64,000 nucleotides of DNA from a virus (taxonomy: Duplodnaviria; Caudoviricetes): IMG/VR virus record IMGVR_UViG_3300037067_005321, positions 1 through 64,000 of that record; one strand, given 5' to 3'. The position numbers were made by a program, and so were the translations under genes. The notes under the pieces are model-generated. The model ran no database searches and was not told the DNA's origin. It saw only the letters and a program-made list of their open reading frames with translations. This document shows, in pieces, positions 6,782 through 37,463 of the stretch (positions are counted from its first letter, which is position 1; each line of letters starts with the position of its first letter).

Positions 6782-6786
6782 TTATT

Positions 6787-10555: not shown

Positions 10556-10649
10556 TATATGGCTAGGGATGTACACCTGAAAAGAAGGTACTTCCAACCT
10601 TCCTGCCATATATTTTAGAATGGAAGATAAATCAATGGAAGTGATTAAT
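10556..10649 (+). ncRNA. structured leader, class A copy 1 (candidate cis-regulatory RNA)
   Basis: Closing stem TATATGGC/GCCATATA; hairpin GAAGGT-ACTTCCA-ACCTTC whose loop is complementary to TGGAAGT (10636-10642) at the RBS. Confidence 0.75.
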
Positions 10650-11552
10650 ATGCCTAGAAAATTAGAATATGAGTTTATTAGAGAACAATTTGAAAAAAGT
10701 GGATGGACACTTTTAAGTAAAAAATATATTAATTCTAAAAAAAAGTTAAATGTAATGTGTGATAATGGTCATAAAATAAAAGTAAGATATGATCAATTTA
10801 AAGATGGTATAGGATGCTCTATTTGCTCCTTTGATAAAAAAAGACTATCTATAGATTTTGTAAAATCTGAATTAGAAAAATATGGGTTTATTCTAATATC
10901 AAAAAAATATATATCAGCAATAAAAAAGATTAAAATAAAATGTAAAGAAGGTCATATAACCACTACAACTTGGTCAATTTGGAAAGAACATAAATCATGC
11001 TCAGAATGTTCTAATAATAAAAAAAGAATATCATTAGGGATAATATTAAATAAATTAAATATATTAGGTATATATTTACTATCTAAACATTATACTAATA
11101 ATAAACAAAAATTAAAGCTAAAATGTAAAAATGGTCATATATTCTATTCTAGGTGGAATGATATTGATCAAGGACATACACAATGTAGACAATGTTATTT
11201 AAATTCTAAAATAGTTTATGATATAAAAGACATAGACAAATTCTATAAATATAGAATAATAGTACAAAGATTAACTAGAAAAATGTATAAACAATTTAAG
11301 GAATTAATAAATCCAAATAATTTAGAAAGATCGCAGGGAGCTAATCATCATCTAGATCATAAATTTTCAGTATTAGACGGATTTTTAAATAATATATCTC
11401 CTGAAATAATATCAAATCTATATAATTTACAAATGTTGCCTTGGTTAGAAAATTCAATTTATAAAAAGGGAAGTTCATCTATATCATATAAAGAGTTAAT
11501 GATAGGTTGGGAATTATATAATATATATTATATAGAAAATATTATTTATTAA
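10650..11552 (+). CDS. free-standing HNH-type endonuclease with 3 tandem Zn-ribbon repeats (start probably 10650)
   Basis: 3 x C..GH...C..C repeats; HLDHKFSVLDGF...NLQML...N C-terminal domain. Confidence 0.75.
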   Translation: MPRKLEYEFIREQFEKSGWTLLSKKYINSKKKLNVMCDNGHKIKVRYDQFKDGIGCSICSFDKKRLSIDFVKSELEKYGFILISKKYISAIKKIKIKCKEGHITTTTWSIWKEHKSCSECSNNKKRISLGIILNKLNILGIYLLSKHYTNNKQKLKLKCKNGHIFYSRWNDIDQGHTQCRQCYLNSKIVYDIKDIDKFYKYRIIVQRLTRKMYKQFKELINPNNLERSQGANHHLDHKFSVLDGFLNNISPEIISNLYNLQMLPWLENSIYKKGSSSISYKELMIGWELYNIYYIENIIY

Positions 11553-11555
11553 AAT

Positions 11556-11591
11556 AAAAGGCTACTTACTCTATTTGTAAGTAGCCTTTTT
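11556..11591. terminator. bidirectional rho-independent terminator
   Basis: AAAAGGCTACTTAC-TCTATTT-GTAAGTAGCCTTTTT between the convergent arms. Confidence 0.9.
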
Positions 11592-11609
11592 GCTAGGATA
11601 GGTGTATAT

Positions 11610-12515
11610 TTATTTGACTAGCCAAGAATTTGCTGTGGCAAGGTAGAAATCACGCACTCCATACTTATCAGTAATATGGGTAGCTGCTCCACTTTTATTA
11701 TTACTCCAATAAATTAAATCACTGGCATTATAACGTGACGCAATGAGGTCAGAAGCACTATTATTGCAAAGTACTAAATGCCTACCAACATTTCCACTGC
11801 TTCCTTTAGGAAGTTTAACTCTAGTCTTGCTACTATTTCCAGACAATAATATGGTAAAATCTGTATTAGTTGCAGTATAATCAACACTTATTGTTTTAGA
11901 TTTATGTTTATAAAAGTTACTATCTATTACTCTGAATGCTTTTGTTATAATGTAAGCTGAATTTGTATCTGAAGTAGATAGTTCTGGAATTGATAAATGG
12001 GGTGTAAAGGAAGTAAGTATTTGGTAGTTCATTCCAGACATAGTAGTTCCATACTGATAACTTGCTACAAAATCAGCAGTTGCAGTTAAATTACTTCCTA
12101 AAGTTATAGAGAATGATCCTAAATTATAGTCTATAGTCCCACTACCGGGAGGAGAAGCATCCCCAGATAAAGTTCCAGCACCATTATCTGTAAAATGCTC
12201 ATAACTGGCATTAATTGTTACTGTATTAGCTAAAATAGGTACATTGTCAATGTATCCAGAATACATCTTAGTTGCAGCCAATCCAGTAGCAACAACTTCA
12301 TTAGTAACATACCCCCAATAATTAGAATTTTCATAATTAGAAGATAATGTTAAGTTAGTTGCTGAATTTACAGAAGCTATATCATAAAAAACTGATTCAT
12401 CAGAGATTTTAAATATATCTCCTTGACCAATATATGTTGTAAATTCAGTACTATTTCCTATTACTTTAGCTGATCCAGGCTTTATGGTTACAGAATTTAC
12501 TGAGTACACGGACAT
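11610..12515 (-). CDS. putative tail fibre/accessory virion protein
   Basis: Ser/Thr/Gly-rich beta-type sequence (VIGNSTEF, GSGTIDYNLG) at the end of the tail module. Confidence 0.6.
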   Translation of the reverse strand: MSVYSVNSVTIKPGSAKVIGNSTEFTTYIGQGDIFKISDESVFYDIASVNSATNLTLSSNYENSNYWGYVTNEVVATGLAATKMYSGYIDNVPILANTVTINASYEHFTDNGAGTLSGDASPPGSGTIDYNLGSFSITLGSNLTATADFVASYQYGTTMSGMNYQILTSFTPHLSIPELSTSDTNSAYIITKAFRVIDSNFYKHKSKTISVDYTATNTDFTILLSGNSSKTRVKLPKGSSGNVGRHLVLCNNSASDLIASRYNASDLIYWSNNKSGAATHITDKYGVRDFYLATANSWLVK

Positions 12516-12560
12516 TATTTATACCTCAATATATCAATCACATAATTATTATGTGTAAAA

Positions 12561-13079
12561 TTACCACTCAAATTGACAAAAGCTCTCTAATAGAGAAAAG
12601 TCTTCTCTTGTTAAATTAATATCTGTATTAGTTATAACACATCTTTTCTCTTTTTTATATATCTCATTATCAAAATTATATAATATATCTCTACCATATA
12701 TAGTACATTTGTCTAGTTCTAAACCACTATCTATAGATAAAAGATCAGACCATTCTTTTAAATCTGTTGAAGATATGAAAATAGTTCTTTTAAACTCTTC
12801 AATCTTTTTCTTATTTTCCTCTTCAGTCCCTGATAAAGTTAAAGAATATTCATTAGTTTTTTCATCTATATATTTATCTATTATCTCTTTTCTTCTTTCA
12901 GAATATTCCTGAAATTCTGGTGATTTTATTATCTTCTTCTGAAAAACCCCATAATCAAATGCTGATTTTCCTGTTATACATTTGTCTAGTTTTATAAATG
13001 ATTTTCCCAAAGGATTTTCTGGATTAATGAAATATTCAAATACTACATTGTAAAACTTTATTTTCTCTTTTTCTCCCAT
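12561..13079 (-). CDS. hypothetical protein
   Basis: GGAG RBS and its own promoter-like sequence. Confidence 0.65.
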   Translation of the reverse strand: MGEKEKIKFYNVVFEYFINPENPLGKSFIKLDKCITGKSAFDYGVFQKKIIKSPEFQEYSERRKEIIDKYIDEKTNEYSLTLSGTEEENKKKIEEFKRTIFISSTDLKEWSDLLSIDSGLELDKCTIYGRDILYNFDNEIYKKEKRCVITNTDINLTREDFSLLESFCQFEW

Positions 13080-13121
13080 CTATTGTTCTCCATTTTAAAT
13101 AATAATATTAATAAAAAAGGT

Positions 13122-13150
13122 ATACTAGCAAAAATAAGTAATATAGTCAA
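13122..13150 (-). promoter_or_regulatory. sigma70-like promoter
   Basis: TTGACT-N17-TAGTAT with a TG extension, upstream of 13079. Confidence 0.45.
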
Positions 13151-13193
13151 TAACTCCCCATGTTACATCACCTCAATATAATATAATCATTAA

Positions 13194-16100
13194 TTAACTT
13201 TTGTCAAGTGTTTTTTTCAAGTTTTCATAATCTTCTTTTAGAGAGTTAAAATCTCTATATAATTGCATTAAAGAACCTCGTAACCATGACGGCCAAATCT
13301 TAGAGGACATTGAGGGATTTCCTCTTGAACTTTTCATAATATCTCCCTTTTTCCACATTAATTCTTTTGTAAAAGGGTTATACATATCTTCAGCAGCCTT
13401 GACTAAGGCCCATTCTGGTAAAGTATTATCATCAATAAATTCTAAGCCCGATATTGGATCATATTTTCCTGAGCCTTTGATTTTTGCCAATTCTGCAAGA
13501 TCATCTCTATCATCTAAGAAAAAGAAATCTGCTTCTTCATTTACATTATAGACCCATAATTGATCCCATTGATAAGAAGTGCCATATCCAAGACTTATAC
13601 CTCGATCTGTAGAAGGAACTAAACCAGCAGTATTATAGCCCATTGATCGAAGTGTTCCATTGGCATCAGCAGTAAAGGTTATATTAGAAGCATTATTTGC
13701 TCCAGTGACAGTGATTAATGCATAATCATTTGAATCATAAGTAGTTTTCAATGTTGCTACAATTTCACTACTTGCATTAGATAATCTAAAATCTACAATA
13801 TTTACACCAGCTTGATATATAGTAATATATGAAAAAGGATTAGCACTTTCATTTAGCTGCATTACAATCTTCCCATAATTATTAGCGTCATACGTAACAC
13901 TGCTTGAAAATATAGCACTATTTGAGAAATAAGACCCCACACTTGAAACCCATACAACATCTGATGTGGCTGATCTCATCCTAATATATGTATCGTCTAT
14001 GGAAATATTATGTTTTCCAGTCCCTGTTTGACCAACAGTTATTGCCGAAGCACTTGAGTCTATAGAAATTAAATTTGTGGTATTATTCCTGAAATACATT
14101 GCTCCTGAACTAATAAGGATATTATTTTGGCTGGTGGACGCCCTACCTATAAGAACTGTAGATCCAAAAGAAGATAAAACAGTTGATCCACTTTTAACTT
14201 CTACCCCAGAGGAACTTACTTTTGTGTGATAACCAGCTTGATTCCCAAAATAAGCATTTCCACTAGTATCCCATTGACTATATACAGTTGTATTTACCCC
14301 TATTCTCAATCCATTAGTCTGTTCAATCGAAAACCATGCTTTTGATGCAGTTGCATATTGTCCTGCTGCTAATCCATAAATAGCAGAGGAATACCCATAG
14401 GAGCCATTAAGATTTCCTAATCTAAGTTGGGTAGTTAATGTAGTCCAGGGACTTCCAGCATGAGTAAACATGGAAATATATGGAGCATTAGTTTCTGAGG
14501 AAGTAAGATAAATTCCACCATCCCCGGACTGCCCAAAATTTGTAACACAAGTTCCTTTAGACCATGCCGGATTAGTATCAACCTCATACATAGCATTTTT
14601 GTCTCTTGAAACAGTATATGCCCCACTGGAAGTATCAGTATAATAAGTGTAAAAGCAAAGATCCACACTAGAATATGCAGTATAAGAACTTATATAATCA
14701 CATGAATTTCCATTATGAGTAGGAGAAATGGAATCTCCCCCAACTACAATATAATCAGTTGCACTACTTCCTGAAAACTCAATTGTTACAACATAATTGG
14801 TATCATCCACAGTTGTATATGGAGATGAAAAAGTAAAATCAGTAAGAGCAAAATCTGTGGTTAATGTTGAGACATCAAAAGCATCTGATGTAGCTAAAGC
14901 TTCTCCAGTTGGTACACTAGATACACCAAATGTTCCAGAATGAGCATATAATTTTGCATAAGCTGAACCTGTAGGACTGCTTGTTTTTTTCAAATAGAAT
15001 GATGCTTTTGTTAAAGCACTTCCATTACCTGTTATTGACTGTCCTCTTATAGAAGTAGGTGTACCTGCTGCAACTGTATAATACACATAGTATATTCTAT
15101 CATAAATAGAAGTAAGCCAAGCTGACGTTGCAATGTTATAATAAACACCATTTCCCTCATCTTCTGGAGTTCCATCAACCCCTATTGAAATATCATTACT
15201 AGCATCTGATGAGGTACTCGTAAATTGCAATGTGGTAACATAACGAGTTCCATTTACTGTAGCAACAGGAGATGAAAATGTGAAAGTAACAATTTGATAA
15301 CTTGTAGTTAATCCAGTGGCTACATCTACAGTTGCTGATGTTCCTAAAGCTGCCCCAGTAGGCAAACCAGAAGTACCCCAAGTTCCAGTATGAGCATAAA
15401 TTACTGCACTCATCGTTCCCGTGGGACTACCAACTTTTTTAATATAAAAACTTACCTTAGTTATTGACTCCCCATTTCCGGTAAATGTCTGCCCTCTTTC
15501 AAGAACATAGCCAGAATACATGAAACTATCTGTAGTCTGATTGGAAGAGGCATAACTATCCATCAAAGTATCTACTGCTGGAGAACTGTAACCTATTGAA
15601 TAATCAGTAGAATTATTACTTTCTGAATAACTATCCATTGTGGCTTCTTCACCTGTAGCAGTTACTTGAAACCACTCATCCTCTCCACCATCTTTTATCC
15701 TTAAAATATCACCAACAGAAAAAGTCTCATCACCTTTTATTGTCATTGTACATGAGTCTAAGGCTGTCATAGCTTCATCTAATACATCTGCTGGCCTGAT
15801 TAATACACTTCCACCAACTACAGAAATAGAGTCCTTTTGGAATACTGAGGCATGTATAACTCCTCTAGCAACAATATTTCCGACTTCTAGTAAATTAGAA
15901 TTAAGAATAAATCCTGCACCTAAATATCCGGAAACATAATTAGAACTTTGTATTGACATAGATGCACCATCTAGTTCTACATATGTTCCAGAATTATGAC
16001 CTAATCTCATCCTTGAATTTTCAGAATCAAGAAAGAAATAATCAGAATATAATAAAGATCCAGAAATAGTAAAATTACCAACATTGATTTGGTTATCTAC

Positions 16101-19100
16101 GCTATTGGCATTTTCAGACGCACTACTTGATGATGAATATTGACCATGCCAATCTACATCTCTAACCATACATGTAATAAGTGCTTTATTTCCGGCAGTT
16201 GCTAATTGAGCAGATGTTAATACAATAGATACATAATTGTTTTCTAAATTAACCCAAGCACTATATCCTTCCCCTGATACATCATAACTATATTGATAAT
16301 ATCTATGATCTAAATCAGTACCTTTATTCCATTCAAACTTTACACCACCAGGGATTCCAGATGCAGTAAGACCTGTTATATCGATAGGAGGAGAATTATA
16401 TGCTTCAAATGGTAAACTATACTCTGATTCACCACCATTCCTGCTTCTGGTAGCTATTTTAAAATATAATTTATTGTAATATCCACCATAAATAGTATTA
16501 TTTGCATCTGATAAGCAAGTATCATATGTATAAGTATACTGAGTAGTATTTACATATTCTGTTCTTAATAATTTAGACTCATCATTAGGATCAGAATAGT
16601 ATATTTTTACAATATAGCCATCAACAGAGTCTGTTGAACTATTTAAGGATACAGGATTCCAAAAAATAGTTATATCCTTACCATCCCATTTGTGGGTATT
16701 TGGCATATACCCACTTATGCATATTCCAGAGGGGCAAACCAAATCTGTAGGCATATTTGGTAAAAAGCAACTTACATATGAGTAAGCACTCCCTATACCA
16801 CTATTAGTTTTTCCTTGTAATCTAAAGTAATATGTTGCATTGGTTGCTAATGAATTGTTTATATATTTTAATGTATTATTATATATACTTCCTATGCTTT
16901 CATAAGTTCCATTATTAGTTACTGAAAACTCCACTATTATATAATCAGCATTAGTACATATAGCACTTATATTAAATCCTATTTCCCCACTGCTATTCAA
17001 AGCAACAATTGATATATTAGTTGGTTTTGCTAATTTTATAGTTGTAGGATTAGATAAATCTGTATCATTATTTTCTATTATAGATATAGTAGGCTCAGTA
17101 TATACCGAGGGAATATGATTTACAAGAGTAAGATCTACTTCATCTACTTTAGATCTTTTTACTTCTGTAAGTCTATATGGTTTTATATATGTACTTTTCT
17201 TACCAATTGCATATACAGCATCTGATTTTGGATATTCAGAATCAGGCCAATTTTGTAAAGAAGCTGTTTGTGAAACATTTCCATTTAAAATAGTAGCTGT
17301 TACAAAATTATTATCTGATGTTTGATACTTAATTAAATAAGTTGCTGTTACATCAGTAAAAGTATAGGTAGCTTCCAAGCTAACAGTCTTATTAGTAGCA
17401 TTATAGGATAATATCCTTCCACTATTTCCCCACCCAGGCAATGTATGAGAGATATTAACTATATCTCCAGCAGATGCATGTATATAATCTAGACCAACTT
17501 TAAAATTTATAACATGGTTGCTATTAATAGCATTACTGTGTTTGAATTTTAACTCTCTCTCAGCTTTTTGTCTATTTACTATTCCTTTTAGTCCTATACT
17601 AGATTTAGTAGATTTAATTAAGTCTGTATCTTCAGCAATAGATGATAAAAGCTTCTGTTGGTAATCATCAGAAGCATCAATATATTGGCCTTCCAAAATA
17701 TAAGGAATTTCTGTCAAATTAGTAAAAGATTGAGAAAAACTATCCTTTATTATATTTCCTAAAGAAAGTGTATGTATTGGGGTATCATTTTTATTGATTA
17801 TAAAGCTAATTACTCCATTTTTCCAGACAGGCCAACACCTAAAACTATTGCACATTTCAGCTAATGATGTAATAGCTGCTTGTTGCGTTTCTAAGACACC
17901 ATCAAATGTATGATAATGTTCTTTAATAGTTCCAGACATTGATGCATCAGATATTGTTACGGATCTATCATTAGTATCTCCCAATGCAAAAATATTTAAT
18001 CCTATATAAGCTATATTTGGATTAGTACATGTTATTGTAACAGATACATTACCTGAACCTGTATTACAGGTATTAGATCCTAACCAAACAAGATTAGTTT
18101 TGTTAGTAAAATTATCTTTACTTGCTGCTCCATATGCATTTACATTCAATCTTCCATTACGAGACATATTTAAAATCAATGTATATGTTCCACGCACTGA
18201 TAAAGTAGAACTTAGTCTAAATCCTACAGTATATCCATATGCACCACTCAGTATTATTTGTCTATTTGTTGCTGATGATGTTACAGCACCAGTATTTTCC
18301 CAAGCAGACCCCCACCAATACTTCGTCCATAAATTACTATTTATAACTGAATACCAACCAATATAATCAGGTTGGTTTCCATCATATGGATCATATGAAA
18401 CATGGCATGTTTTAATATTTGCTACCATCTCTGAAGTATTTAGGTCAGAAGAGGATAAATAATTGCCTAATCCAAATCTTTTATTTAAAACTAAATCTCT
18501 AACACATAAAATTGAATTATTTGAATATTCTGTCTTATATGTAACTTCATCCCAAGTTCTTTCAACCCCACCAGAAGTTTCAAATCTACTATTAGTAGAA
18601 CTATAATATGCAGAATCAAATGTTCCAGTCCCAGATAAAGATGGTACACTTATTTTTTTACCTTTAATAGTAGTTATAATATTAGGTATAGATCCAGATA
18701 ATTGATCTGTAGCTTTAATCTTTAATCCAAGTAATGCAGTATTGGGATATATAAAATTACCAGAAGTTACTTCTGTAATTGAATATAGCTGTATGCTATC
18801 TGCTACTTTATAATCAGAAGAAACTCCGGTTGTTCTTTGTAATTTTATAGAATATATTCCTTTTCCAAGACCATATGTAAGACTATCAAAATCTAAATAA
18901 AAACAGTCCCAAACAGCACTCTTGCTGGAATCTGTCATAGTTCTAGAATCAGCAGATGATGAATAAACAGTAGAATAAATTTCAATCTCATTTCCTACTT
19001 TTGCTAATTCAGGACTAACCCAAATAGTGTAATCTCCAATATAAGCAACCTCATTTGTCCAAGAATTACTCTCATATCCTGTTGATGTATTATAGTATAT

Positions 19101-20393: not shown

Positions 20394-20394
20394 A

Positions 20395-20802
20395 TTATTT
20401 CATCTCCTTATATCTTAGAACTTTATAAAGCTTCTTATCCCAAAATCCTTCTAATCTATCAATTCTTGAAGTATTATTTATGTCTATATGTATAAATTTT
20501 CCATCTTCAATATATAATCCCATATGATTTGCAATTGAATAGGATCTTGTATAAAATAGTAAAACATCATATTTTTTAAATGGAGCATTTACATAATACC
20601 AATATTTTGGTATATTATTAATTATATGATTTTCTGATTTATACCAATCAAAAGAATACTCTAATTTTTCTAAATAATCACCAAAGTCTATATTTGCTTC
20701 ATTTGTTAGTATTAATTTACATAATCCAAAACAGTCAACACCACAAAAGTCTCTACCCATATGTTTAAATGGAATACCAATATATTTTGAAAAATCAGTC
20801 AT
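20395..20802 (-). CDS. NlpC/P60 tail-associated peptidase (gpK-like)
   Basis: YIGIPF...GRD..GVDCFGL...HMGLY...FIH. Confidence 0.88.
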   Translation of the reverse strand: MTDFSKYIGIPFKHMGRDFCGVDCFGLCKLILTNEANIDFGDYLEKLEYSFDWYKSENHIINNIPKYWYYVNAPFKKYDVLLFYTRSYSIANHMGLYIEDGKFIHIDINNTSRIDRLEGFWDKKLYKVLRYKEMK

Positions 20803-20841
20803 TTTGTTCTTCCTTAATAATATAGTAGTAAGTTATTAAAA

Positions 20842-22719: not shown

Positions 22720-22728
22720 ATATTACTC

Positions 22729-23406: not shown

Positions 23407-23421
23407 TATTAAATCAACTCC

Positions 23422-27798: not shown

Positions 27799-28204
27799 CT
27801 ATATCACCTTTTTTATCATTTTTAATAAGAGCACCTGCTGCTTTAAATAAATTAAGTAATGTTTTACCTGATTTCTCTATTTTATTTTCTGTAACTTCTT
27901 TCCATGTAAGGGAGTTTATAAAACTGTTCCAAACTTGTTTTTTCTTGTTGAAGTCTCTTGTAGTTCCACCAAAAGATGGGGAGGCATATGCTATGGAGTG
28001 TGCTAAAGTTACAGCATCAAATTTCTTACTGTCTAAATTATTCTTGATACACTTTTCATAAAACAGATAAACTTGATCTATAGTATAATTATTTTTTATA
28101 TCGTTTAGAGTATGACCATTTTTGATAAGTACTGAGAAGATGTCAGCAATAGTAACTACTTCGCCCCTCTTCCTCTTTACTCGTTTGGATTTGGGGCTAT
28201 TAGA
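27788..28204 (-). CDS. gpT-like -1 frame extension of the tail assembly chaperone
   Basis: Open -1 frame with no ATG, reading ...GEVVTIADIFSVLIKNGHTLNDIKNNYTIDQVYLFYEKC...DIVDS*; it fills the gap before the tape measure gene. Confidence 0.8.
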   Translation of the reverse strand, partial: SNSPKSKRVKRKRGEVVTIADIFSVLIKNGHTLNDIKNNYTIDQVYLFYEKCIKNNLDSKKFDAVTLAHSIAYASPSFGGTTRDFNKKKQVWNSFINSLTWKEVTENKIEKSGKTLLNLFKAAGALIKNDKKGDIVDS

Positions 28205-28563
28205 TTTTTTATGCTGTTTATTATAGTAGTCTTATTTTGATCATATATAGTAAAAGCTATTTTAAGACCATCTTCCATAGATAGTTTCTTAACAGATTCA
28301 TCATCAGTATTGAGAGTTATCTTTATTATTTCAAATACTTCTGAACTTGCAATTGAGAGCAATTTTGCTATTGTAGTATATTTTAAAATACCACCTGAAT
28401 TATCTAACTCTTCAATAAGTCCTTTAGCTTCTGCTTTTTCAATTACTTTTCCTAGTGATTCCGCTAGGTTAAAGAGATGTCCAAAACCCCACGGTAAAAT
28501 TTTGAATCCAGCAATTGTTACTTCTGGGAAGAGGATTTTCTCTTCTGATTGTTTCTCTGTCAT
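28177..28563 (-). CDS. tail assembly chaperone (gpG-like)
   Basis: Between tail tube and tape measure; ends in slippery heptamers. Confidence 0.8.
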   Translation of the reverse strand: MTEKQSEEKILFPEVTIAGFKILPWGFGHLFNLAESLGKVIEKAEAKGLIEELDNSGGILKYTTIAKLLSIASSEVFEIIKITLNTDDESVKKLSMEDGLKIAFTIYDQNKTTIINSIKNLIAPNPNE

Positions 28564-28589
28564 TAAGTTTGTTGCTCCTTTATTTTAAA

Positions 28590-29669
28590 TTATTTCATCC
28601 AACCAATTTCTTTGTAAAACTGGTACAAATCATATCCAATATATAGTTCTTTGAGAGTGATTGAAGAATTAGCTTTCTTTTTCCAATTTATTGTTGGTGA
28701 TAGCATCTCTAAATTATATGGATTTGAGATTATGTCTGTTAATATTTTATTTTTAAATCCTTCTGCTACTGAAACTCTATGATCCAGATGAGCTTCATCT
28801 TTATTATTTCCACGTATTAAACCTAATGGATTTATAAAATCTTCTTCTAAATTATATATTCTGTATGTTTTGTTTCTAGCATCTCTATTATAGAGATGAA
28901 ATTCTTCTATTTCTTCTTCTGAATAATATTTATAGATTGATAATCTATAACATTTTGGACATCTGCATCCATTAATCCAATTTGCCATTTTGGTAATATA
29001 TTGATGTCCTTCTGAACAAATAGTTATTAATGGAGATCTAACATTTTTATATTCAGTAGATATTAAAGTATAATTTTCTAGTTCTAATCTTTCTCTAACT
29101 ATATCAATATTAACTAATTTATTACCAATACATCTACCACATCTCTGTCCTTGTTTCCAGCAAGTCCATAATATTTCATGATGATGCCCTTTTGGACAAA
29201 TAAATTTAAGTTTTTCACTAGGATCTTTATATTTAGTACTTAATAAGATATATCCTTCCTTTTCAAAGGACTTTCTAATATTGTCAATACTTTCACATCT
29301 ATTTTCTGAATAACATACCCCACACCTTGATCCATTTCTCCAAGAATTTTTACTCATTGAAATTTTATGTCCTTCTGGACAAATCAAATTTAGTTTTTGT
29401 TTACTATCTTTATAATTTGTAGTTAATAATTGATATCCTTCTGATTCTACTTCTTCTTTTAAATCATTTAATTTAGTTCTCTTATCTTCATGAGCACACA
29501 AAAAACAACCAGCACCAGATTTAAAGTGTGAATATCTTAACTGATGTTTATGCCCTCTATCACAAATAAAATCTAACTTTTGATTTGAGTCAATATATTC
29601 CGTAGATAATAAGACCCAACCACGTTTTTCAAACTCTGATTTAATAAATTCATAAGAATGTTTTTTCAT
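28590..29669 (-). CDS. free-standing HNH-type endonuclease with 4 Zn-ribbon repeats
   Basis: 4 x C..GH...G..C..C; HLDHRVSVAEGF...NPYNLEML; paralog of 10650 and 32321. Confidence 0.75.
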   Translation of the reverse strand: MKKHSYEFIKSEFEKRGWVLLSTEYIDSNQKLDFICDRGHKHQLRYSHFKSGAGCFLCAHEDKRTKLNDLKEEVESEGYQLLTTNYKDSKQKLNLICPEGHKISMSKNSWRNGSRCGVCYSENRCESIDNIRKSFEKEGYILLSTKYKDPSEKLKFICPKGHHHEILWTCWKQGQRCGRCIGNKLVNIDIVRERLELENYTLISTEYKNVRSPLITICSEGHQYITKMANWINGCRCPKCYRLSIYKYYSEEEIEEFHLYNRDARNKTYRIYNLEEDFINPLGLIRGNNKDEAHLDHRVSVAEGFKNKILTDIISNPYNLEMLSPTINWKKKANSSITLKELYIGYDLYQFYKEIGWMK

Positions 29670-29748
29670 ATATTACCTCTGCTATAAGTAATTTTGATAG
29701 GCTGAGGAGTAGATAGCAGCTACTCCTCACTTACGTCCGTCGAACCTA
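29670..29748 (-). ncRNA. structured leader, class B copy 1
   Basis: Closing stem TAGGT/GCCTA; hairpin TGAGGAGTAG-CTGCTAT-CTACTCCTCA whose loop is complementary to ATAGCAG directly before the AGGT RBS. Confidence 0.75.
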
Positions 29749-29752
29749 ATTT

Positions 29753-29780
29753 AATATAATCACTATTTAGCAAATGTCAA
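29753..29780 (-). promoter_or_regulatory. sigma70-like promoter
   Basis: TTGACA-N12-TGAT-TATATT. Confidence 0.65.
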
Positions 29781-29813
29781 GTAGTAATTATAAGTTAATT
29801 GTTATAAATTTAA

Positions 29814-30380
29814 CTAAATCATATTTAATATACCATAAGGTTTAGAAGCCCATTCTGAAGTAGTTGACAAAAATTCAACGCTCAATTCACAGGAGATCTG
29901 ATTCCACTCTGTACCATCCCCAAAATTAATACTACCAGAAGGACGCAAAGTTGCCTTTGGAATACTAATTACAAAATCATTACCAGTTTGGGATCTGAAT
30001 AGTAAAGATACAGATCCTCTTTGTAATGGCTCCATCATTAGAGCAGTTTTACCTGTTCCTAATGTTGATCCAAGAAACACCCTCTTAAAGTTAGCCTCAT
30101 CCAGTTCATCAAACGTAAAAGGAATTGTTATGTTATTTTCAACATTAACAGTTTTATCTTTACGTCTAGAACCATTTACAGTGATATAATGATCAAGAAA
30201 AGTAACTTCAGGAGTAATCTCCGATGTTACAATATTACCCAAACTCCTAGCAGCAGTTCTAAAGTTAGAACCAACTGTAGTTGTTGCAGTAGTATCCAAC
30301 AGGGAAGCATGTCCAATTGTAGGATCAAAATATATATCAAGACCGCCAACTGCGTAGTTCACATCTGATTTTACGGCCAT
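29814..30380 (-). CDS. major tail (tube) protein
   Basis: Position and size; RSLGNI...EITPEV...IPKATLRPSGSINF pattern. Confidence 0.8.
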   Translation of the reverse strand: MAVKSDVNYAVGGLDIYFDPTIGHASLLDTTATTTVGSNFRTAARSLGNIVTSEITPEVTFLDHYITVNGSRRKDKTVNVENNITIPFTFDELDEANFKRVFLGSTLGTGKTALMMEPLQRGSVSLLFRSQTGNDFVISIPKATLRPSGSINFGDGTEWNQISCELSVEFLSTTSEWASKPYGILNMI

Positions 30381-30499
30381 TTATTTCACTTCCTATTAAA
30401 AAATTTCGTACACTATGTACGGTTTGTATTCTCCAGATACTCCTAAATTGTTAATATATACCCTAAATCCATAGGTGATTTCTCCAGGTTCTTTAAAAC

Positions 30500-31681
30500 T
30501 TATTTTAATGTGTTATACACATCTTTTTCACCATATTCAAACAAATGAATATTTTTTATATTATCTGGCATACCCTTCTTTTCCAACCCTAGAAGTTCAG
30601 CATATAAATTTTCAGTTTTGATAATAAAGTTTTCCATTACTAATTCTTGTCTTTTTGTTTTAATATTCTTCATTATATCTAAATATTGATTTTCTAATTG
30701 TGAACAATCCCCTACTTCATCAATATGATTAAACACAAAACCAATACCATGTTTTTTTATATGCTCCATAGTTTCTGGACACCAACAAGCTAAAGATGGT
30801 AATCCAGCTTGAAGGTATTCTTCTTCTTTGTTGCTTAATGTATATTTAACTTGAGCTTTTTGCCCATCCTCTTTATTAAAAATACATATACCATATTTAA
30901 ATTTAGTAAGTTTTTCCATCATTTCATTATAAATAGTTGGTGGACAAATAACTGCTCCAATATTTTGATATGTGGTATATGCTGACATATTGCCACAAAA
31001 TATATGAGTCTCATTACCCATTTCAACTAATCTTTTCATTATTCCATAAAGATCTCTATATGAAAATCTTCTATTTAAATCAATATCATCTGGGGGATTT
31101 AAACCACCTTCATATACTAATCCTTTACGATCAAATATTTTAGATTCATCAAAAGACACAATATCCTTATTACAATAACTATAAACAACAGTATTTGGTA
31201 TATTAACTTTAAACAATCTATTAATTATTTCTTGTATAGGTTGTGATACATATATTAATCCATCTGCATTTGCCATCATTTCTAATTCTGCAACTGATGC
31301 AAACCCTTGTCTGATGGTGTCTAAGTCATGTAGGTCTGCTACTATTTTAACTCTATCAGATGCAGTCATATCTTGTACTACTTCACGTATCCATTTTACA
31401 GGATGGGATGGTTCGTTGTGAAAATGCAAAATATTACATCCGTTAGATACCATTAATTTAACATTATTTTTAAACTGAGCTTCTCCATCATATACAAGAT
31501 ATTGATCATAAGTATTCATACCATAAGATACCTTAGTACCATTACCCCAAACTTCATATCCTAATGATTTCAATGCTTTAGCTTGCTTCTGTACTCGGAT
31601 GCAATGATGATCTGCTAGCATTGCTATTTTTAAAGGTTTTCCTTCTTTATTTAAAATTGGTTTGTCATAATCATTTAACAT
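30500..31681 (-). CDS. GT-B fold glycosyltransferase-like protein
   Basis: HFHNEP, VADLHD, LVYEGG, SNK..EYLQAGLP (GT4-like). Confidence 0.7.
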   Translation of the reverse strand: MLNDYDKPILNKEGKPLKIAMLADHHCIRVQKQAKALKSLGYEVWGNGTKVSYGMNTYDQYLVYDGEAQFKNNVKLMVSNGCNILHFHNEPSHPVKWIREVVQDMTASDRVKIVADLHDLDTIRQGFASVAELEMMANADGLIYVSQPIQEIINRLFKVNIPNTVVYSYCNKDIVSFDESKIFDRKGLVYEGGLNPPDDIDLNRRFSYRDLYGIMKRLVEMGNETHIFCGNMSAYTTYQNIGAVICPPTIYNEMMEKLTKFKYGICIFNKEDGQKAQVKYTLSNKEEEYLQAGLPSLACWCPETMEHIKKHGIGFVFNHIDEVGDCSQLENQYLDIMKNIKTKRQELVMENFIIKTENLYAELLGLEKKGMPDNIKNIHLFEYGEKDVYNTLK

Positions 31682-31688
31682 ATTTAAT

Positions 31689-31892
31689 TTATCTACTATT
31701 CCTTTCTATTTTAAAAATTGAATTTACTTCTTGGATTTTTATATTATTCAAATATGCTCCACCTTGTTCTATTAGTCTTCTAGCATCTGATTTAGTTTTA
31801 CATAATCCAGATCTTACAAATAATTCAGTAAGTTGAATTCCATTAATTGCTTCTTCTCTTTTAATTATCATAGTTGGTATTGCATCTATCAT
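31689..31892 (-). CDS. stand-alone S4 RNA-binding domain resembling the tyrosyl-tRNA synthetase C-terminus
   Basis: IPT...GIQLTELFVRSGLCKTKSDARRLIEQGGAYLNN. Confidence 0.8.
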   Translation of the reverse strand: MIDAIPTMIIKREEAINGIQLTELFVRSGLCKTKSDARRLIEQGGAYLNNIKIQEVNSIFKIERNSR

Positions 31893-32311
31893 AATTTAAC
31901 ATGTTTTATTGTAAAATTACTAACACATATCTGCCACTCCCCACCCTCCTCCGGTTGCAGGGGAATTGGCTGACTTTGATTAGCTAATACTATCCCATTT
32001 CCTGATGCCATTACATTATGATTCATATGTAAGGTATTTATAACTGCTTGACAAGTTCTAATAGAAGATAGATTAGTTTTGGTTTTAATTCTTATTTGAA
32101 GAGAACTATTATACTTATCTTTAGAAGTTGGAGGAGCACCACCATAAGGTAATATAGATATACAAGGAGTAGCTATACTAGGAAATTTTCCTAAATATAG
32201 ATTCTTATTAGATACTAATCTAGTGCCTAGAGCAACACATACTGGAGAAGTTGCTGTTAAAGATACAAAGTATTTACTAAATTCATTCAATATAGTGTTA
32301 GTTATTGCCAT
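31889..32311 (-). CDS. tail terminator-like protein
   Basis: Position; LQIRIK...INTLH...QSQPIPL...VSNF pattern. Confidence 0.65.
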   Translation of the reverse strand: MAITNTILNEFSKYFVSLTATSPVCVALGTRLVSNKNLYLGKFPSIATPCISILPYGGAPPTSKDKYNSSLQIRIKTKTNLSSIRTCQAVINTLHMNHNVMASGNGIVLANQSQPIPLQPEEGGEWQICVSNFTIKHVKL

Positions 32312-32320
32312 TTAAACTCC

Positions 32321-33190
32321 TTATAATGCTAAATATTCTCTATATCCAAGATATAATTCATCTAACGTAATTTCTGAAGTACCAAGTTTAGATAAATTAT
32401 CATGCTCTATTAACATTTGTAAATTAAATGGATTAGCTATTACTTCTGGACTTATCCCATTTAAAAATCCATCTAACACTGTATAAATATGATCTAGGTG
32501 GTATTGATATCTACCTCTTGGAAGATTTAGAGGATTAATTATATATTTATATATTTTATATATCTTATTTGAGATTCTATCTACTATTTTTCTATATTTA
32601 TAATATTCAAAAATATCATAAAAATTGTATCTTAATCTAGATTCAAAGAAACATTTCTTACATCTATGGCCCTGCTGAAAATCATTCCATCTTAATTTTA
32701 ACTTATGATTATTAGGACAAACTAATTCTAATTTCTGATAACAGTTGAAATATGTATTTGTAAGTAATTTATAACCCTCTAATTCCATTATATTTTTTAT
32801 TTCATTTATATCTTTTCTAGCATTCCCAGAACAATGAGGACACCTATATCCAGAATACCAATTAGCATAACTCATACTATTTTTATGTTCTTTAGGGCAA
32901 ATATACTCTAATTTTTGTAAGGTATTTTGATAAGTAGTACTTATTAAAATATATCCCTCTTTAAGAAACTGATTTCTAATAAAAGATATATCTAATCTTT
33001 TATTATTAGAACACTGACCACACCTTTGGCCAAATAGCCAACTATCATATCTTATTTTTCCATAATGTCCTTTTGGGCATATATACTCTAATGGATTTTT
33101 ATTATTTTTATATTTATTACTTAGTACTGTATATCCTTCTTTCTCAAATTCTTCTTTTACTAATTCAATAGTTATCTTCCTACGTTTCAT
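32321..33190 (-). CDS. free-standing HNH-type endonuclease with 3 Zn-ribbon repeats
   Basis: 3 x CP..H...G.RC..C; YHLDHIYTVLDGF...NPFNLQML. Confidence 0.75.
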   Translation of the reverse strand: MKRRKITIELVKEEFEKEGYTVLSNKYKNNKNPLEYICPKGHYGKIRYDSWLFGQRCGQCSNNKRLDISFIRNQFLKEGYILISTTYQNTLQKLEYICPKEHKNSMSYANWYSGYRCPHCSGNARKDINEIKNIMELEGYKLLTNTYFNCYQKLELVCPNNHKLKLRWNDFQQGHRCKKCFFESRLRYNFYDIFEYYKYRKIVDRISNKIYKIYKYIINPLNLPRGRYQYHLDHIYTVLDGFLNGISPEVIANPFNLQMLIEHDNLSKLGTSEITLDELYLGYREYLAL

Positions 33191-33287
33191 TATTATAATT
33201 CCTCCTCATAATTTGTTTCCTCTTTTATTTAATTTATGGCAGGTAGGTGAGGAGTACCTACTTTTCGGTTACGTTTACCTAGCCATA
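33191..33287 (-). ncRNA. structured leader, class A copy 2
   Basis: Closing stem TATGGC/GCCATA; hairpin GTAGGT-ACTCCTC-ACCTAC whose loop is complementary to the GAGGAG RBS. Confidence 0.75.
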
Positions 33288-33294
33288 CCTTATA

Positions 33295-33322
33295 TGTATA
33301 ATCACTATTTATAATTTGTCAA
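33295..33322 (-). promoter_or_regulatory. sigma70-like promoter
   Basis: TTGACA-N12-TGAT-TATACA, starting immediately after the upstream stop codon. Confidence 0.6.
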
Positions 33323-33324
33323 GT

Positions 33325-33924
33325 CTATTTTTTATATTTATGAATATTTAATTCAATATTTTCTACCATAAATTTAGCCATCCTTTTAGTTGATCTCTTA
33401 GCAGCTATCTTAGCTAAATCGGCTGGTAAAGCACTAAAATCCTCTTTAATTATATTAAGATAGTATGATTGGCGCTCCAACCAAGGATTTTCTAAAAAAA
33501 GAGGCCCAGTACCTGGGAATAAAGCATGTGGATGGCTTGGTGATCCATAAGGAAATAAATTATAATGAATTATGGATGTCACATCCTCACCATCTGCATT
33601 AAATTTAGAATACTGAACATAAGCTCTAATAGATTTTGACCCTTTAATCCTCTCAGCAGATATTTTGCCTAAATCAGCAGTTACAGTACCATCTTCATTT
33701 CCACTAGCTACATTTAAATAACCTCTACTTCCAAAAGTTAATACTGCTTTACCACTTCTTCTTAATTCACCAGTGTCATAAGGAACTCTTGGTTGAGCAT
33801 TAGTTAATAAATCTATAGCTATTACAGCAGCAATCCTAGCTGATTTAACTGCAATAATCTGACCAAGAGCATCTAAATTTTTACTAACTGATTTAACTTC
33901 ATTTATATCTATAGTTACAGGCAA
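33325..33924 (-). CDS. HK97 gp10-like tail completion/neck protein
   Basis: VPYDTGELRRSG and GPLFLENP motifs. Confidence 0.75.
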   Translation of the reverse strand: MPVTIDINEVKSVSKNLDALGQIIAVKSARIAAVIAIDLLTNAQPRVPYDTGELRRSGKAVLTFGSRGYLNVASGNEDGTVTADLGKISAERIKGSKSIRAYVQYSKFNADGEDVTSIIHYNLFPYGSPSHPHALFPGTGPLFLENPWLERQSYYLNIIKEDFSALPADLAKIAAKRSTKRMAKFMVENIELNIHKYKK

Positions 33925-33934
33925 TTATATCACC

Positions 33935-34246
33935 TTATGCAAGATAAAGTTTAAAATGATCAATTTGTCCAGAAAGATCTACTTCTTTATTTATAACTAA
34001 TATTTTATAATACTTACCATCTTTCAAAAGTTCATAATTTTCTTTAACTATATAATCTGGAAGAATCCAAACTTGAACAGTTGCTATTCTTTCTTCACCA
34101 GTAGAAGAAACTACTTTAGTAATTACTTCTTGCCATCTACAGTTAACATTTGAATATACTTTAGCTCTAGTAATATCGGAATAAGCATCAGTAGTTACTG
34201 AATAAATTTCACATAATTGGTTGAGTAAGCCTTGAATTAAACTCAT
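33935..34246 (-). CDS. head closure (head-tail joining) protein
   Basis: Size, position and beta-rich NVNCRWQE...GEE...DHFKLYL pattern. Confidence 0.7.
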   Translation of the reverse strand: MSLIQGLLNQLCEIYSVTTDAYSDITRAKVYSNVNCRWQEVITKVVSSTGEERIATVQVWILPDYIVKENYELLKDGKYYKILVINKEVDLSGQIDHFKLYLA

Positions 34247-34470
34247 TTATTTTCTCCTCTACTAGTCATTTCTCTCAGGCAAATTATCCATATTGCTTGA
34301 GAGATAGTATTTAAAAAAACTATAAAAAGGAACAAAGGAACTCCCAGAAGATAATGACTGTCGTTTAACCAAAGGGCTAAAAGCAAATCTAAAGGAAGAG
34401 TTATTGAACTGATCCATATCATAATCCATTCCCATCTTGTGAATTTGGGTATAACTGGGAGGCTCTTCAC
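34243..34470 (-). CDS. small membrane protein
   Basis: Two hydrophobic segments; ATGA overlap with the next gene. Confidence 0.5.
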   Translation of the reverse strand: MKSLPVIPKFTRWEWIMIWISSITLPLDLLLALWLNDSHYLLGVPLFLFIVFLNTISQAIWIICLREMTSRGENK

Positions 34471-34503
34471 TTAACTCACCACCTAAAGTTTGTTCTATAG
34501 ACA

Positions 34504-34569
34504 TTATTTTTTACCTCCACAACCTTTTCCACCTTTTTTGGGTTTAGGCTTATCTTTCTTTTTAACCAA
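34504..34569 (-). CDS. 21-aa Lys/Gly-rich peptide
   Basis: TTG directly after the upstream TAA, with GGAGG RBS; MVKKKDKPKPKKGGKGCGGKK*. Confidence 0.4.
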   Translation of the reverse strand: MVKKKDKPKPKKGGKGCGGKK

Positions 34570-34872
34570 TTATTTCTTCCCTCCTTTCCTTTTAAGTTTT
34601 TCTCTAAGTTTCTCCTTCTTTGTTTTTTTGTGCTTTTTCACCTTGTATTGCTTCAATTTTCCTTTAGGCATAGGATCTTTTGTTAAACTTTTTATACGTT
34701 TAACTTTATCAAATTTTATATTCTTAATAGACCTACGTTTTATTATATCACCAGATTTAAGTTCAATAATAAATACTCCATTCTTTATCCCAAGAAGCCT
34801 GGCACGTTGCCATTTATTTCTAGAAGTCCATACCTCAATAACAAATTTCATCTTTCTATAATCTTGATACAT
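34570..34872 (-). CDS. highly basic protein
   Basis: Lys/Arg-rich; TAATG coupling. Confidence 0.6.
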   Translation of the reverse strand: MYQDYRKMKFVIEVWTSRNKWQRARLLGIKNGVFIIELKSGDIIKRRSIKNIKFDKVKRIKSLTKDPMPKGKLKQYKVKKHKKTKKEKLREKLKRKGGKK

Positions 34873-35054
34873 TATCTTTTCTTCTTTCTTCTTTTAGATT
34901 GTTTTTGTTTAGATGTTACTTTCTTTCTACGCTTATTCTTTCTAAGATATTCTTTATAACCTTTAGCATGTCCGTGCTCATTATACCATTTACGCCAGAG
35001 ATCAGGATGGTTAATTTTTAAAAATAGTTCTTGTTGTGGACTTGAGAAGGGCAT
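34872..35054 (-). CDS. small basic phage protein
   Basis: MPFSSPQQ..FL..NHP.LW.KW pattern with a basic tail. Confidence 0.65.
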   Translation of the reverse strand: MPFSSPQQELFLKINHPDLWRKWYNEHGHAKGYKEYLRKNKRRKKVTSKQKQSKRRKKKR

Positions 35055-35056
35055 AC

Positions 35057-36079
35057 TTACCTCCTGGCAATCTTTAATCTTCTGGAAATCCAGCTACTTA
35101 GTAGTTTTTTAGCTGTAGATGATATAGGTATACTCATTCCACTGCCACTATCTTTTAATGATACAGATACATCCCCTATGCTAACTGATTTAGCTATAGT
35201 CTTATAACTATTTATATTTTCCATTCCTTCTGATTCTAATAAGAAAATAGCTTGCTCTATCTGAGCTTCTTTAATATTCTTATCTAATGGAACAAATAAT
35301 GCAAACTCTGTACTGGTAGCTGGAATGGATGTAAAAGCCTCTGATACTGTGATAGACCCATTAGACACATTAGAATTACTAACTAATCTTATATCATTAA
35401 GAGGAGTTCCTTCAGTAATATGAATAGTACTATATTTAAACCAATCTGTAGGATATTTACCATAAGTATCTGAATATAAAGAAGTATGTCTAAATGAAGT
35501 AGTCGTTATTGGAGTACTACAATTTCCTGTTATAACATCATGATCATCCCTAGGAAATTCAAGTGATTGTGAGTCATAATATTTATCACCTATAAATTTA
35601 AATCTGTCAATACATTTAGCAGCTTCTACTAATAGTCTTTTTTTACCTTCTATTGACAAAGAGTCCCATTTATTTGAATGACCATATTTATTCATAATAT
35701 AGTTATTAGCTTCAGTTAAAGAAGTGTAGGAATTAGCATTAGGATCACCAAGTTTTGAATTTAAAGTTAAAGAACCAAATACTTCAAAAGTAATATAATG
35801 TGTATAAACATTACTGGCTGTAGTAACTCCTGCTAGTTGAAGTTGATATGTTTCACCGACAGTACCACCTTTTACAGTCACACTAACATTAGTGGCAGTA
35901 ACAGCTTTTGTAGCAACTAGAGAGGTGGTTACATTTGCACCAAGAGAATCAAAAACTGTAGCAGTACATGAACTTATAGTCTCAGTACCAGATAAATCCT
36001 CAGTAAATTTCTTAGTTACTTGAAATCTATCTGTATTCATTTTATAAAAATAATCTACATCATGTGTATATTTTGCCAC
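35057..36079 (-). CDS. head-tail adaptor (DnaT-like/gp6-like) with extra beta domains
   Basis: ANSYTSLTEANNY, QSLEFPR, IKEAQIEQA, SVSIGDVSVS. Confidence 0.72.
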   Translation of the reverse strand: MAKYTHDVDYFYKMNTDRFQVTKKFTEDLSGTETISSCTATVFDSLGANVTTSLVATKAVTATNVSVTVKGGTVGETYQLQLAGVTTASNVYTHYITFEVFGSLTLNSKLGDPNANSYTSLTEANNYIMNKYGHSNKWDSLSIEGKKRLLVEAAKCIDRFKFIGDKYYDSQSLEFPRDDHDVITGNCSTPITTTSFRHTSLYSDTYGKYPTDWFKYSTIHITEGTPLNDIRLVSNSNVSNGSITVSEAFTSIPATSTEFALFVPLDKNIKEAQIEQAIFLLESEGMENINSYKTIAKSVSIGDVSVSLKDSGSGMSIPISSTAKKLLSSWISRRLKIARR

Positions 36080-36538
36080 TTACTCACCTACCATAAGTTC
36101 TTTTATTTCATCTGGTATATTACAAATATGATCAGATGTTTTGACTATTATTTTTTCAAATTTATTTAATAAGTCTATTAAAACTTTATCATTTGTACAA
36201 AGTATTGTTCTTATTCCAGAAGTACCAATATATAAATTCAATTGAAATACTAGTCTATAAATATCTAATCCTTCAGAATAATCTAGATTAGTAATCTTCT
36301 TTATCTTTAACTTTTTACCTATTTTATATAGGTCAAACTGCCTCTGTGCAACTATAGCATCAGAACACAATTTTGGATAATTAATTGAAGGACTATCACT
36401 ACAAATAATAATTATATCATATTCATTATTATCTGAAGTTATAGTGTCAAAGAATTCATAAATCCAGTTATAGCAAGTATATGAAATTATTAATTTTTTC
36501 ATTAATATATCCTCTTCAAATCTGAATAGCATTCCCAT
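36080..36538 (-). CDS. hypothetical protein (weak PIG-L-like resemblance)
   Basis: Last gene of the glyco cluster; start more likely at the internal MKKLII. Confidence 0.5.
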   Translation of the reverse strand: MGMLFRFEEDILMKKLIISYTCYNWIYEFFDTITSDNNEYDIIIICSDSPSINYPKLCSDAIVAQRQFDLYKIGKKLKIKKITNLDYSEGLDIYRLVFQLNLYIGTSGIRTILCTNDKVLIDLLNKFEKIIVKTSDHICNIPDEIKELMVGE

Positions 36539-37173
36539 GGCGTAGCTATTATTCTTTTATCTACAGCTTCTTGACTATTATAAAATATTATTGAATGTTT
36601 CTTTTGGCTAAGACAGACAAAACTTATAAAACCCTCTGGACCAATAAAGAACTCACAATTTTGGGCTAAACAAATTAGATCTCTTATATTAGTCTCACCA
36701 ACTAGATTAACACAATTTCTTACACTTTTATAAATAGGATTATTACCTACTAAAACACATCTAAAATCTTTGTTTTCTTCTATTATAGAATTTACTGAAT
36801 CAATTGAAAATCTTTTACAGTTTCTTCCTTCTAATTTTCCACTATGGGGTTGTAGTATCCAAAATGGTTTATCAAAACAAAATCTATTATGTAAATCAAA
36901 TTGAGGAAAATATTCCATATCTTCATGGCAATCAGCGGTTATCTCTGGAATATCTAATCTAGGTTTTTCTGTGAATTCAAGTTCTATAATGAAAATATTA
37001 TATATTTCTGAAATTGATTGAGCATAGGAAATTGGATCTAAATAAGCAAACACCTTGCATTGTTTTTTTATCTTTATAACTTTTAGGCAATGAATATAAC
37101 TGTCCCCTATCCCCGCTCCAATAGAGGCTAACTCAAACAAAGTTAATCTCCATATATAAATTATAATCTTCAT
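36502..37173 (-). CDS. GT9 (heptosyltransferase-like) protein
   Basis: GIGD, NLVGETNIRDLI...FIGPEG. Confidence 0.65.
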   Translation of the reverse strand: MKIIIYIWRLTLFELASIGAGIGDSYIHCLKVIKIKKQCKVFAYLDPISYAQSISEIYNIFIIELEFTEKPRLDIPEITADCHEDMEYFPQFDLHNRFCFDKPFWILQPHSGKLEGRNCKRFSIDSVNSIIEENKDFRCVLVGNNPIYKSVRNCVNLVGETNIRDLICLAQNCEFFIGPEGFISFVCLSQKKHSIIFYNSQEAVDKRIIATPWECYSDLKRIY

Positions 37174-37369
37174 ATAACTCTCCTAAAGTTATATATGAAT
37201 TACCATTTTTGCTACTATTTTCAGAATGCTCTAACATTCTAAGATTAAATGGGTTTCCAATTACTTCTACTGGAACTTTATTTCTAAATCCATCTACTAC
37301 TGAAAATATATGATCAACATGAAATTTACTTTCATCTTTCCATTCTTTACATTTTGTGCATTGTTTCAT
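37133..37369 (-). pseudogene. internally deleted or minimal HNH endonuclease
   Basis: MKQCTKCKEWKDESKFH joined directly to VDHIFSVVDGF...NPFNLRML; lacks the repeat array and helical linker of its paralogs. Confidence 0.6.
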
Positions 37370-37463
37370 CTTAATCACTCCCCCCTGATTTATCTCCTCT
37401 TTTATTTAATTATGGCAGGTAGGTGAGGAGTACCTACTTTTTGGGAGCTGCCCTAGCCATAAT
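37370..37463 (-). ncRNA. structured leader, class A copy 3
   Basis: Closing stem ATTATGGC/GCCATAAT; hairpin GTAGGT-ACTCCTC-ACCTAC whose loop matches GAGGAG and GGGGAGT downstream. Confidence 0.75.

Follow-up and report, generated by a model that had tools for sequence, protein, structure and literature searches.

Phage int-alpA leader RNAs carry two alternative downstream targets for one loop, suggesting control of translation initiation

We analysed a 64,000-nt stretch of viral DNA (Duplodnaviria; Caudoviricetes; positions 1 to 64,000 of IMG/VR record IMGVR_UViG_3300037067_005321), hereafter the window, in which three structured leaders, earlier termed class A, precede endonuclease-like genes. 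All three belong to the int-alpA RNA family (Rfam RF02996). In each of them, hairpin P3 of a three-way junction presents a loop whose complement occurs twice downstream, at a proximal site (S1) and again at a distal site (S2) within the Shine-Dalgarno (SD) region. Across the family, both sites follow the loop as it changes in sequence, and they compete for the same loop nucleotides. From this comparison of sequences we think it likely that int-alpA leaders are cis-acting controllers of translation initiation with two mutually exclusive pairings of the P3 loop.

Three int-alpA leaders in one phage genome

A cmscan search with the RF02996 model gave scores of 39.5, 43.3 and 47.6 bits for copies 1, 2 and 3 respectively (gathering score, 35.8), with model positions 1-71 of 71 aligned in each. 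No further copies were present in the whole 135,715-bp phage genome, which has terminal repeats. The original prediction, made from the letters of the window alone, had proposed a common pattern for these leaders, TATGGCTAGG-N-AAAAG-N-CTGCCATA, and this pattern indeed occurs exactly three times in the window but never in 100 dinucleotide shuffles. Compensatory changes that had been read in two of the helices were also borne out, P3 pairing as GAAGGT/ACCTTC or GTAGGT/ACCTAC, and P2 as GGT/ACC or GGG/CCC. The junction nucleotides CUAG, GAAAAG and CCUG are found in all three copies, with an A replacing the first G of GAAAAG in copy 3, and the corresponding columns are invariant in the family alignment (A2). 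The prediction had the structure of the leader right but had not recognised it as int-alpA, a catalogued motif to which the present copies add members. The family is reportedly among the candidate RNAs described by Weinberg and colleagues in 2017. A full-text literature search, which did not extend to the supplement of the original description, found no paper testing int-alpA function (incidental mentions only, and none of RF02996).

The positions of the individual elements are given in Table 1. The Rfam model ends at the proximal site, S1 corresponding to model positions 66-71 in every window copy, so that S2 and the small hairpin that presents it, P4, fall beyond the model. As predicted, the complement of the loop is found twice downstream in all three copies, and the second occurrence lies in the loop of P4; the ATG follows 6-11 nt past the distal site. 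The leader of copy 3 begins only 2 nt past the stop codon of the upstream gene. Single-sequence minimum free energy (MFE) folds of copies 2 and 3 reproduced P4. The MFE fold of copy 1 broke P1 and nested a helix between the loop and S2 in its place; single-sequence folding is uninformative for this copy.

Table 1. Positions of the int-alpA leaders, their elements and the adjoining genes in the window
Feature	Position	Strand	Remarks
int-alpA match, copy 1	10556-10627	+	RF02996
int-alpA match, copy 2	33219-33289	-	RF02996
int-alpA match, copy 3	37396-37463	-	RF02996
Common pattern	10558-10610	+	pattern search of window
Common pattern	33235-33287	-	pattern search of window
Common pattern	37411-37461	-	pattern search of window
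Copy 1, three-way junction	10556-10612	+	P1 10556-10563/10605-10612; P2 10566-10578
Copy 1, junction GAAAA	10579-10583	+	read from sequence
Copy 1, P3	10584-10589/10597-10602	+	read from sequence
Copy 1, P3 loop ACTTCCA	10590-10596	+	read from sequence
Copy 1, S1 (proximal, decoy) TGGAAGA	10621-10627	+	loop complement TGGAAG, 10621-10626
Copy 1, S2 (distal) TGGAAGTG	10636-10643	+	within P4 loop
Copy 1, P4	10630-10634/10642-10646	+	AATCA/TGATT
Copy 1, likely start ATG	10650-10652	+	chosen by alignment with paralogues
Copy 1, endonuclease-like gene, 300 aa	10650-11552	+	PHROG 559 'HNH endonuclease' (E 5e-28), PHROG 681; weak CapR-like repeats
Copy 2, promoter-like TTGACA-16 nt-TATACA	33291-33322	-	upstream of copy 2; read from sequence
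Copy 2, three-way junction	33235-33289	-	P1 TATGGC 33287-33282/GCCATA 33240-33235; P2 33279-33267
Copy 2, P3	33261-33256/33248-33243	-	read from sequence
Copy 2, P3 loop ACTCCTC	33255-33249	-	read from sequence
Copy 2, S1 AGAGGA	33223-33218	-	loop complement GAGGA, 33222-33218
Copy 2, S2 TGAGGAG	33208-33202	-	within P4 loop
Copy 2, P4	33213-33210/33200-33197	-	AATT/AATT; or 7 bp, 33212-33206/33198-33192
Copy 2, start ATG	33190-33188	-	
Copy 2, endonuclease-like gene, 289 aa	32321-33190	-	PHROG 681/559; Pfam CapR homology domain, 33.9 bits
Copy 3, three-way junction	37409-37463	-	P1 37463-37456/37416-37409; P2 37453-37443
Copy 3, P3	37437-37432/37424-37419	-	read from sequence
Copy 3, P3 loop ACTCCTC	37431-37425	-	read from sequence
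Copy 3, S1 GAGGAG	37399-37394	-	loop complement
Copy 3, S2 GGGGAGTG	37383-37376	-	within P4 loop
Copy 3, P4	37390-37386/37377-37373	-	AATCA/TGATT
Copy 3, start ATG	37369-37367	-	
Copy 3, short gene, 78 aa	37133-37369	-	C-terminal domain only; alignment A1; PHROG 23051/5104

Potential start codons were seen close behind the proximal site. In copy 2, a nine-codon upstream open reading frame (ORF), MRRNYNNET (33209-33180, minus strand), begins 8 nt past S1 and overlaps the main ATG out of frame, and copy 1 has an in-frame ATG at 10635, 7 nt past S1. Copy 3 has no such start codon, so an upstream start behind S1 is not a general feature. We therefore rejected the idea that S1 is the SD sequence of a leader peptide, since a start codon follows it in copies 1 and 2 but neither in copy 3 nor generally.

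Two sites for one loop across the family

Loci were gathered with two degenerate patterns from at least 120 viral stretches and 80 stretches of bacterial genomes; dropping pattern matches without a P3 stem left at least 86 unique loci from viruses and about 50 from bacteria (about 140 in all). MAFFT aligned the junction in register but not S1, S2 and P4, whose spacing is variable, and the pseudoknot and P4 pairs were therefore tested with permutation scripts. For the junction itself, 61 diverse sequences gave 87.8% paired cells in the helices, compared with 61.3% after shuffling, and a covariation score of 0.609 (0.154 when shuffled; 0.09-0.16 in slid controls), with 11 of the 15 junction pairs changing on both sides. 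Whether the source is an AT-rich phage or a GC-rich member of the Proteobacteria, the junction nucleotides hardly change, if at all, but all the helices and the loop vary. Indeed, P3 loops differ widely between lineages, and include GCCGUC, CUCCUCC, CACCUAA, CAUCUC, UACCUG, CCACCUU, CCCCGAU and CCUUCA among others.

This diversity of loops was used in a permutation test restricted to loci with loops sharing no 5-mer, in which the first 64 nt past P1 were searched for complements of the locus's own loop and of foreign loops. Own loops had a clear advantage, both at the best site (z -6.5) and at the second, non-overlapping site (z -9.2), which was equalled in 0 of 5000 permutations. Other runs of this comparison gave similar results. 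The loop of P2 gave a flat response (z -0.3 and -0.6, respectively), as very nearly did the interior of the ORF (z -0.1 and -2.1). The double target, which the original prediction had proposed to look for in homologues, is thus conserved in them. Both sites were present in 32 of 42 viral representatives, and the same layout could be read by eye in the roughly 50 bacterial loci. Moreover, the footprints of S1 and S2 on the loop overlap by 3-8 nt in every one of 33 independent loops, so that the two pairings are mutually exclusive and the sites are alternative targets, as had been proposed.

The two sites nevertheless differ in how they meet the loop. S1 begins 9-20 nt after P1 and is usually flush with the 3' end of the loop, as in an H-type pseudoknot that stacks on P3. 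S2 follows after a spacer with a median length of 7 nt, and its footprint lies nearer the 5' side of the loop than that of S1 in 23 loops, as against 4 with the opposite order (p 3e-4). Mean duplex energies across the family were -9.7 kcal/mol for S1 and -10.1 kcal/mol for S2, and 15 loci favour each.

They also differ in their relation to the ribosome. The assignment of the distal site to the SD region holds well beyond the window: in 29 of the 31 loci, S2 ends at a distance of 1-11 nt from the start codon that follows. Pairing with the anti-SD sequence was better for S2 than for S1 in 28 loci and worse in 3 (p 2.5e-5), which marks S2 as the real ribosome-binding site (RBS) and S1 as a decoy for the loop, not for ribosomes. 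The hairpin presenting S2 was likewise commoner than chance. Its stem reached 4 bp or more in 24 of 32 loci, where 13.5 were expected, and the mean P4 stem was 4.47 bp against 3.43 bp in the null (0 of 5000). P4 stems differ freely in sequence (AAUCA/UGAUU, UUAC/GUAA, AUUGA/UCAAU, ACUAUU/AAUAGU, GCGC/GCGC).

A possible two-state leader and its alternatives

The model we favour has the leader moving between two conformations. In state 1, the P3 loop would pair with S1 as an H-type pseudoknot, leaving the SD region exposed in the loop of P4, where ribosomes could load. In state 2, a loop-loop kissing interaction between P3 and S2 would occlude the RBS, and the partition between the states would set, and perhaps time, the amount of nuclease made. 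Since selection keeps both pairings and the pairings exclude each other, both conformers would have to matter. We infer that each state occurs in vivo, with translation repressed in state 2 and permitted in state 1, and that something shifts the balance between them, be it the order in which the nascent transcript folds, the binding of a ribosome or recognition of the conserved junction by some factor. Folding order might provide a brief open window followed by a closed state, S1 being transcribed first. A ribosome on S2 might act as a latch, freeing the loop for capture by S1, and a factor recognising the invariant junction could serve as a trigger.

Several observations weigh against this model. 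The window copies pair more strongly with S2 than with S1, by 1.4-3.6 kcal/mol (S1 and S2 duplexes, -8.1 and -10.5 kcal/mol in copy 1, -8.1 and -11.7 in copy 2, -10.8 and -12.2 in copy 3), so that an open state may not be favoured there. In the permutation test, the reversed loop retained some signal (z -2.7 and -5.2 at the best and second site); since loops are pyrimidine-rich and targets purine-rich, part of the complementarity must be compositional. A count of G-U against A-C mismatches showed no strand-specific signal. P4 recurs without being universal, and short stems arise readily by chance (level, 3.4 bp). Finally, about one-fifth of the viral representatives lack a convincing S2. Among these, L083, L114 and L062 retain S1 only and have an SD sequence unrelated to the loop, and the existence of such loci means that the junction and S1 must have some function independent of S2. 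In L108 a single loop-complementary site serves as the SD sequence. Both sites are missing from a few loci, L017 and L030, where the conserved ORF behind an int-alpA-like junction is about 490 aa long (METK.FL...) and no complement of the P3 loop follows downstream, making them a subgroup that lacks the pseudoknot.

The loci with S1 alone are what one would expect if the element were static, the junction and S1 pseudoknot forming a 5' stabiliser or folding scaffold and the match to S2 being a by-product of the likeness between SD and anti-SD sequences. Many loops are indeed pyrimidine-rich and anti-SD-like, in keeping with the residual signal of the reversed loop, and where a promoter can be guessed the leader would begin at or near the transcript start. 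However, S2 also matches locus-specific loop nucleotides that have nothing of the SD sequence about them (GACGGC, TAGCG, AACGG, CTGTGG, CATGGA), and own loops outperform foreign ones at the second site even though many of the foreign loops are themselves anti-SD-like. We therefore consider a purely static role unlikely.

Alternatively, the junction RNA might be released by processing or termination and act in trans as a small RNA, its loop pairing with S1 and S2 of the same or of sister transcripts, much as the C4 antisense RNA of phage P1 does. Rfam indeed types the family as 'Gene; sRNA', the identical loops of copies 2 and 3 would allow cross-talk, and a U-rich stretch follows P1 in many viral loci. 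Many members of the family also precede antirepressor genes, the class of gene that C4 controls (PMC8198154). Yet the U tract is absent from bacterial loci, and consensus scans found no terminator-like site after P1 in any window copy, nor do these copies match C4 in cmscan (see below). The targets are found in cis, at distances that are short and fixed, and S1 abuts the loop at its 3' edge, just as it would in an H-type pseudoknot formed within one molecule. Within a gene family, moreover, the loop keeps its sequence instead of diversifying. Action in trans is thus less economical than control in cis, and we regard it as improbable.

A third view makes the leader a sensor, in which the junction binds a small molecule or a host or phage protein that decides which pairing forms, in a riboswitch-like or protein-dependent manner. 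The near-invariance of the junction over so wide a range of genomes would fit this well, and the near-equal pairing energies across the family are those expected of a switch poised for a trigger. Against it, the downstream genes have no common metabolic theme that would point to a ligand, Rfam scans matched the window leaders to no known aptamer family of the kind that an SD-sequestering riboswitch would have, and the conserved junction bases are equally explained by a fold that aims P3 at the 3' tail. We give the sensor only a small chance. A hammerhead or other self-cleaving ribozyme was rejected because the lengths and sequences of the junction do not fit and Rfam gave no hit; CsrA-type GGA sites were rejected because GGA is missing from many loops and targets.

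Returning to the two-state model, the comparative evidence turns a catalogued motif of no known function, whose range takes in uncultured, AT-rich phages as well as the prophages and islands of Proteobacteria, into a concrete proposal. Its widest form, which we put forward tentatively and think more doubtful than the model itself, is that int-alpA is not a small RNA gene but a modular lock on translation, in wide use at the accessory and selfish genes that phages and mobile elements carry. The leader would then be bistable, with a decoy pseudoknot and a kissing complex at the RBS, and its invariant junction would change the state on sensing a trigger, be it the loading of a ribosome, a small molecule or a factor from phage or host. 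If so, the orphan motif would have a mechanism and would define a new class of two-target riboregulator. Should the two-state model hold, it would explain how homing endonucleases, antirepressors and replication initiators are safely dosed in phages, and translational switches that contain their own competitor site could be modelled on this compact natural example.

Neighbouring genes and known systems

The genes immediately behind the three int-alpA copies of the window all belong to one paralogous, endonuclease-like family. The long forms match PHROG 559 'HNH endonuclease' and PHROG 681 'endonuclease' with E values of 1e-22 to 1e-28, and the homology of the 78-aa product behind copy 3 is confined to the C-terminal H-x-D-H...N...N domain that the two longer nucleases have, a domain for which sequence searches of NCBIfam and the PDB returned no match. 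Elsewhere in the family, the downstream genes encode antirepressors (ANT, AntA, P22_AR_N, Rha, KilA-N), HNH_3-AP2, HNH and GIY-YIG nucleases, DUF1376 proteins and a methyltransferase. It is plausible that accessory genes such as these need tight dosing. One locus (L073) has both loop targets upstream of an ORF of at least 481 aa with a Cas12f1-like TNB (TnpB-type) domain.

Two further paralogues of the nuclease family are present in the genome. The fourth (28623-29669, minus strand) has a different structured leader, class B, at 29670-29790 (minus strand), in which a hairpin loop CUGCUAU is complementary to AUAGCAG beside the SD sequence. The fifth copy of the C-terminal domain lies outside the window (G000 C1 130719-131048, plus strand; L204), fused to a different N-terminal part, and no int-alpA was noticed upstream of it. 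A second leader of class B type (59517-59598, minus strand) has UAGGG/CCCUA enclosing AGGAUUA and a long hairpin with the loop CCGUAAU; then follow UAAUCCU-AUUACGG, abutting an AGGU SD sequence, and the ATG.

Transcription from the promoter-like box upstream of copy 2 would begin about where P1 does, and the 14-mer after its TTGACA, AAATAGTGATTATA, has an exact match only in the class B leader of the fourth paralogue (29755-29768). The same putative promoter would therefore precede paralogues with different leaders, which suggests that the leaders are interchangeable. Consensus scans of the window for promoters and terminators did no better than chance and, on the strand that matters, flagged nothing ahead of the leaders, not even the copy 2 box, and a -10-like box 5-14 nt upstream was seen in only some of the AT-rich family loci. 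We offer it as a suggestion that the leader begins at the transcript start, copy 2 being the best case.

The window also contains a phage tRNA-Trp (CCA) gene at 6786-6860 (plus strand) and, at 57239-57275 (minus strand), a sub-threshold match over the full model length to the Rfam abiF RNA (RF03085; 30.3 bits against a gathering score of 37). The sequencing runs that contain the phage contig are of groundwater and landfill metagenome DNA, with no RNA run listed, and megablast of 10 kb against a phage collection found no related phage.

The window copies agree with int-alpA as catalogued in their three-way junction, in the junction nucleotides and in the tail site complementary to the P3 loop, and they share its setting directly upstream of accessory phage and mobile-element genes. 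Their neighbours, however, are endonuclease-like genes of a lytic-looking phage and not integrase or alpA. Loop pairing beside an RBS is also known from the repZ and repA genes of IncI and IncB plasmids, where a hairpin loop pairs next to the RBS of the downstream gene and this pairing activates translation, under the control of an antisense RNA and a leader peptide. These pseudoknots resemble int-alpA in the position of the pairing, but have neither a decoy site nor a three-way junction.

The C4 RNA of P1 and P7 is, like int-alpA, a structured RNA within the transcript of the genes it controls, with loops complementary to a downstream ribosome-binding region, and it precedes an antirepressor operon; in P1 it is co-transcribed with the icd-ant genes that it silences (Citron and Schuster 1990, as cited in PMC8198154). 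C4 has two loops and two adjacent targets and, unlike the leaders as we read them, acts once processing has set it free. The C4 model (RF01695) gave no cmscan hit to the window copies, either at the gathering score or at E values up to 5. P1 also has upstream copies of the C4 targets.

Finally, restraint of nuclease translation by RNA structure has a precedent in phage T4, where such structure at the RBS of homing endonuclease genes (I-TevI, segB, mobE) holds back their translation (PMC2988022). There the RBS is in the stem of one stable local hairpin, and repression is relieved by a late promoter inside the hairpin (PMC2988022). In the window leaders the SD sequence is not in a stem, and consensus scans found no internal promoter. 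Instead, these phage leaders place the SD sequence in the loop of a 4-7 bp hairpin, where it can be contacted by a distant loop for which a decoy site competes.

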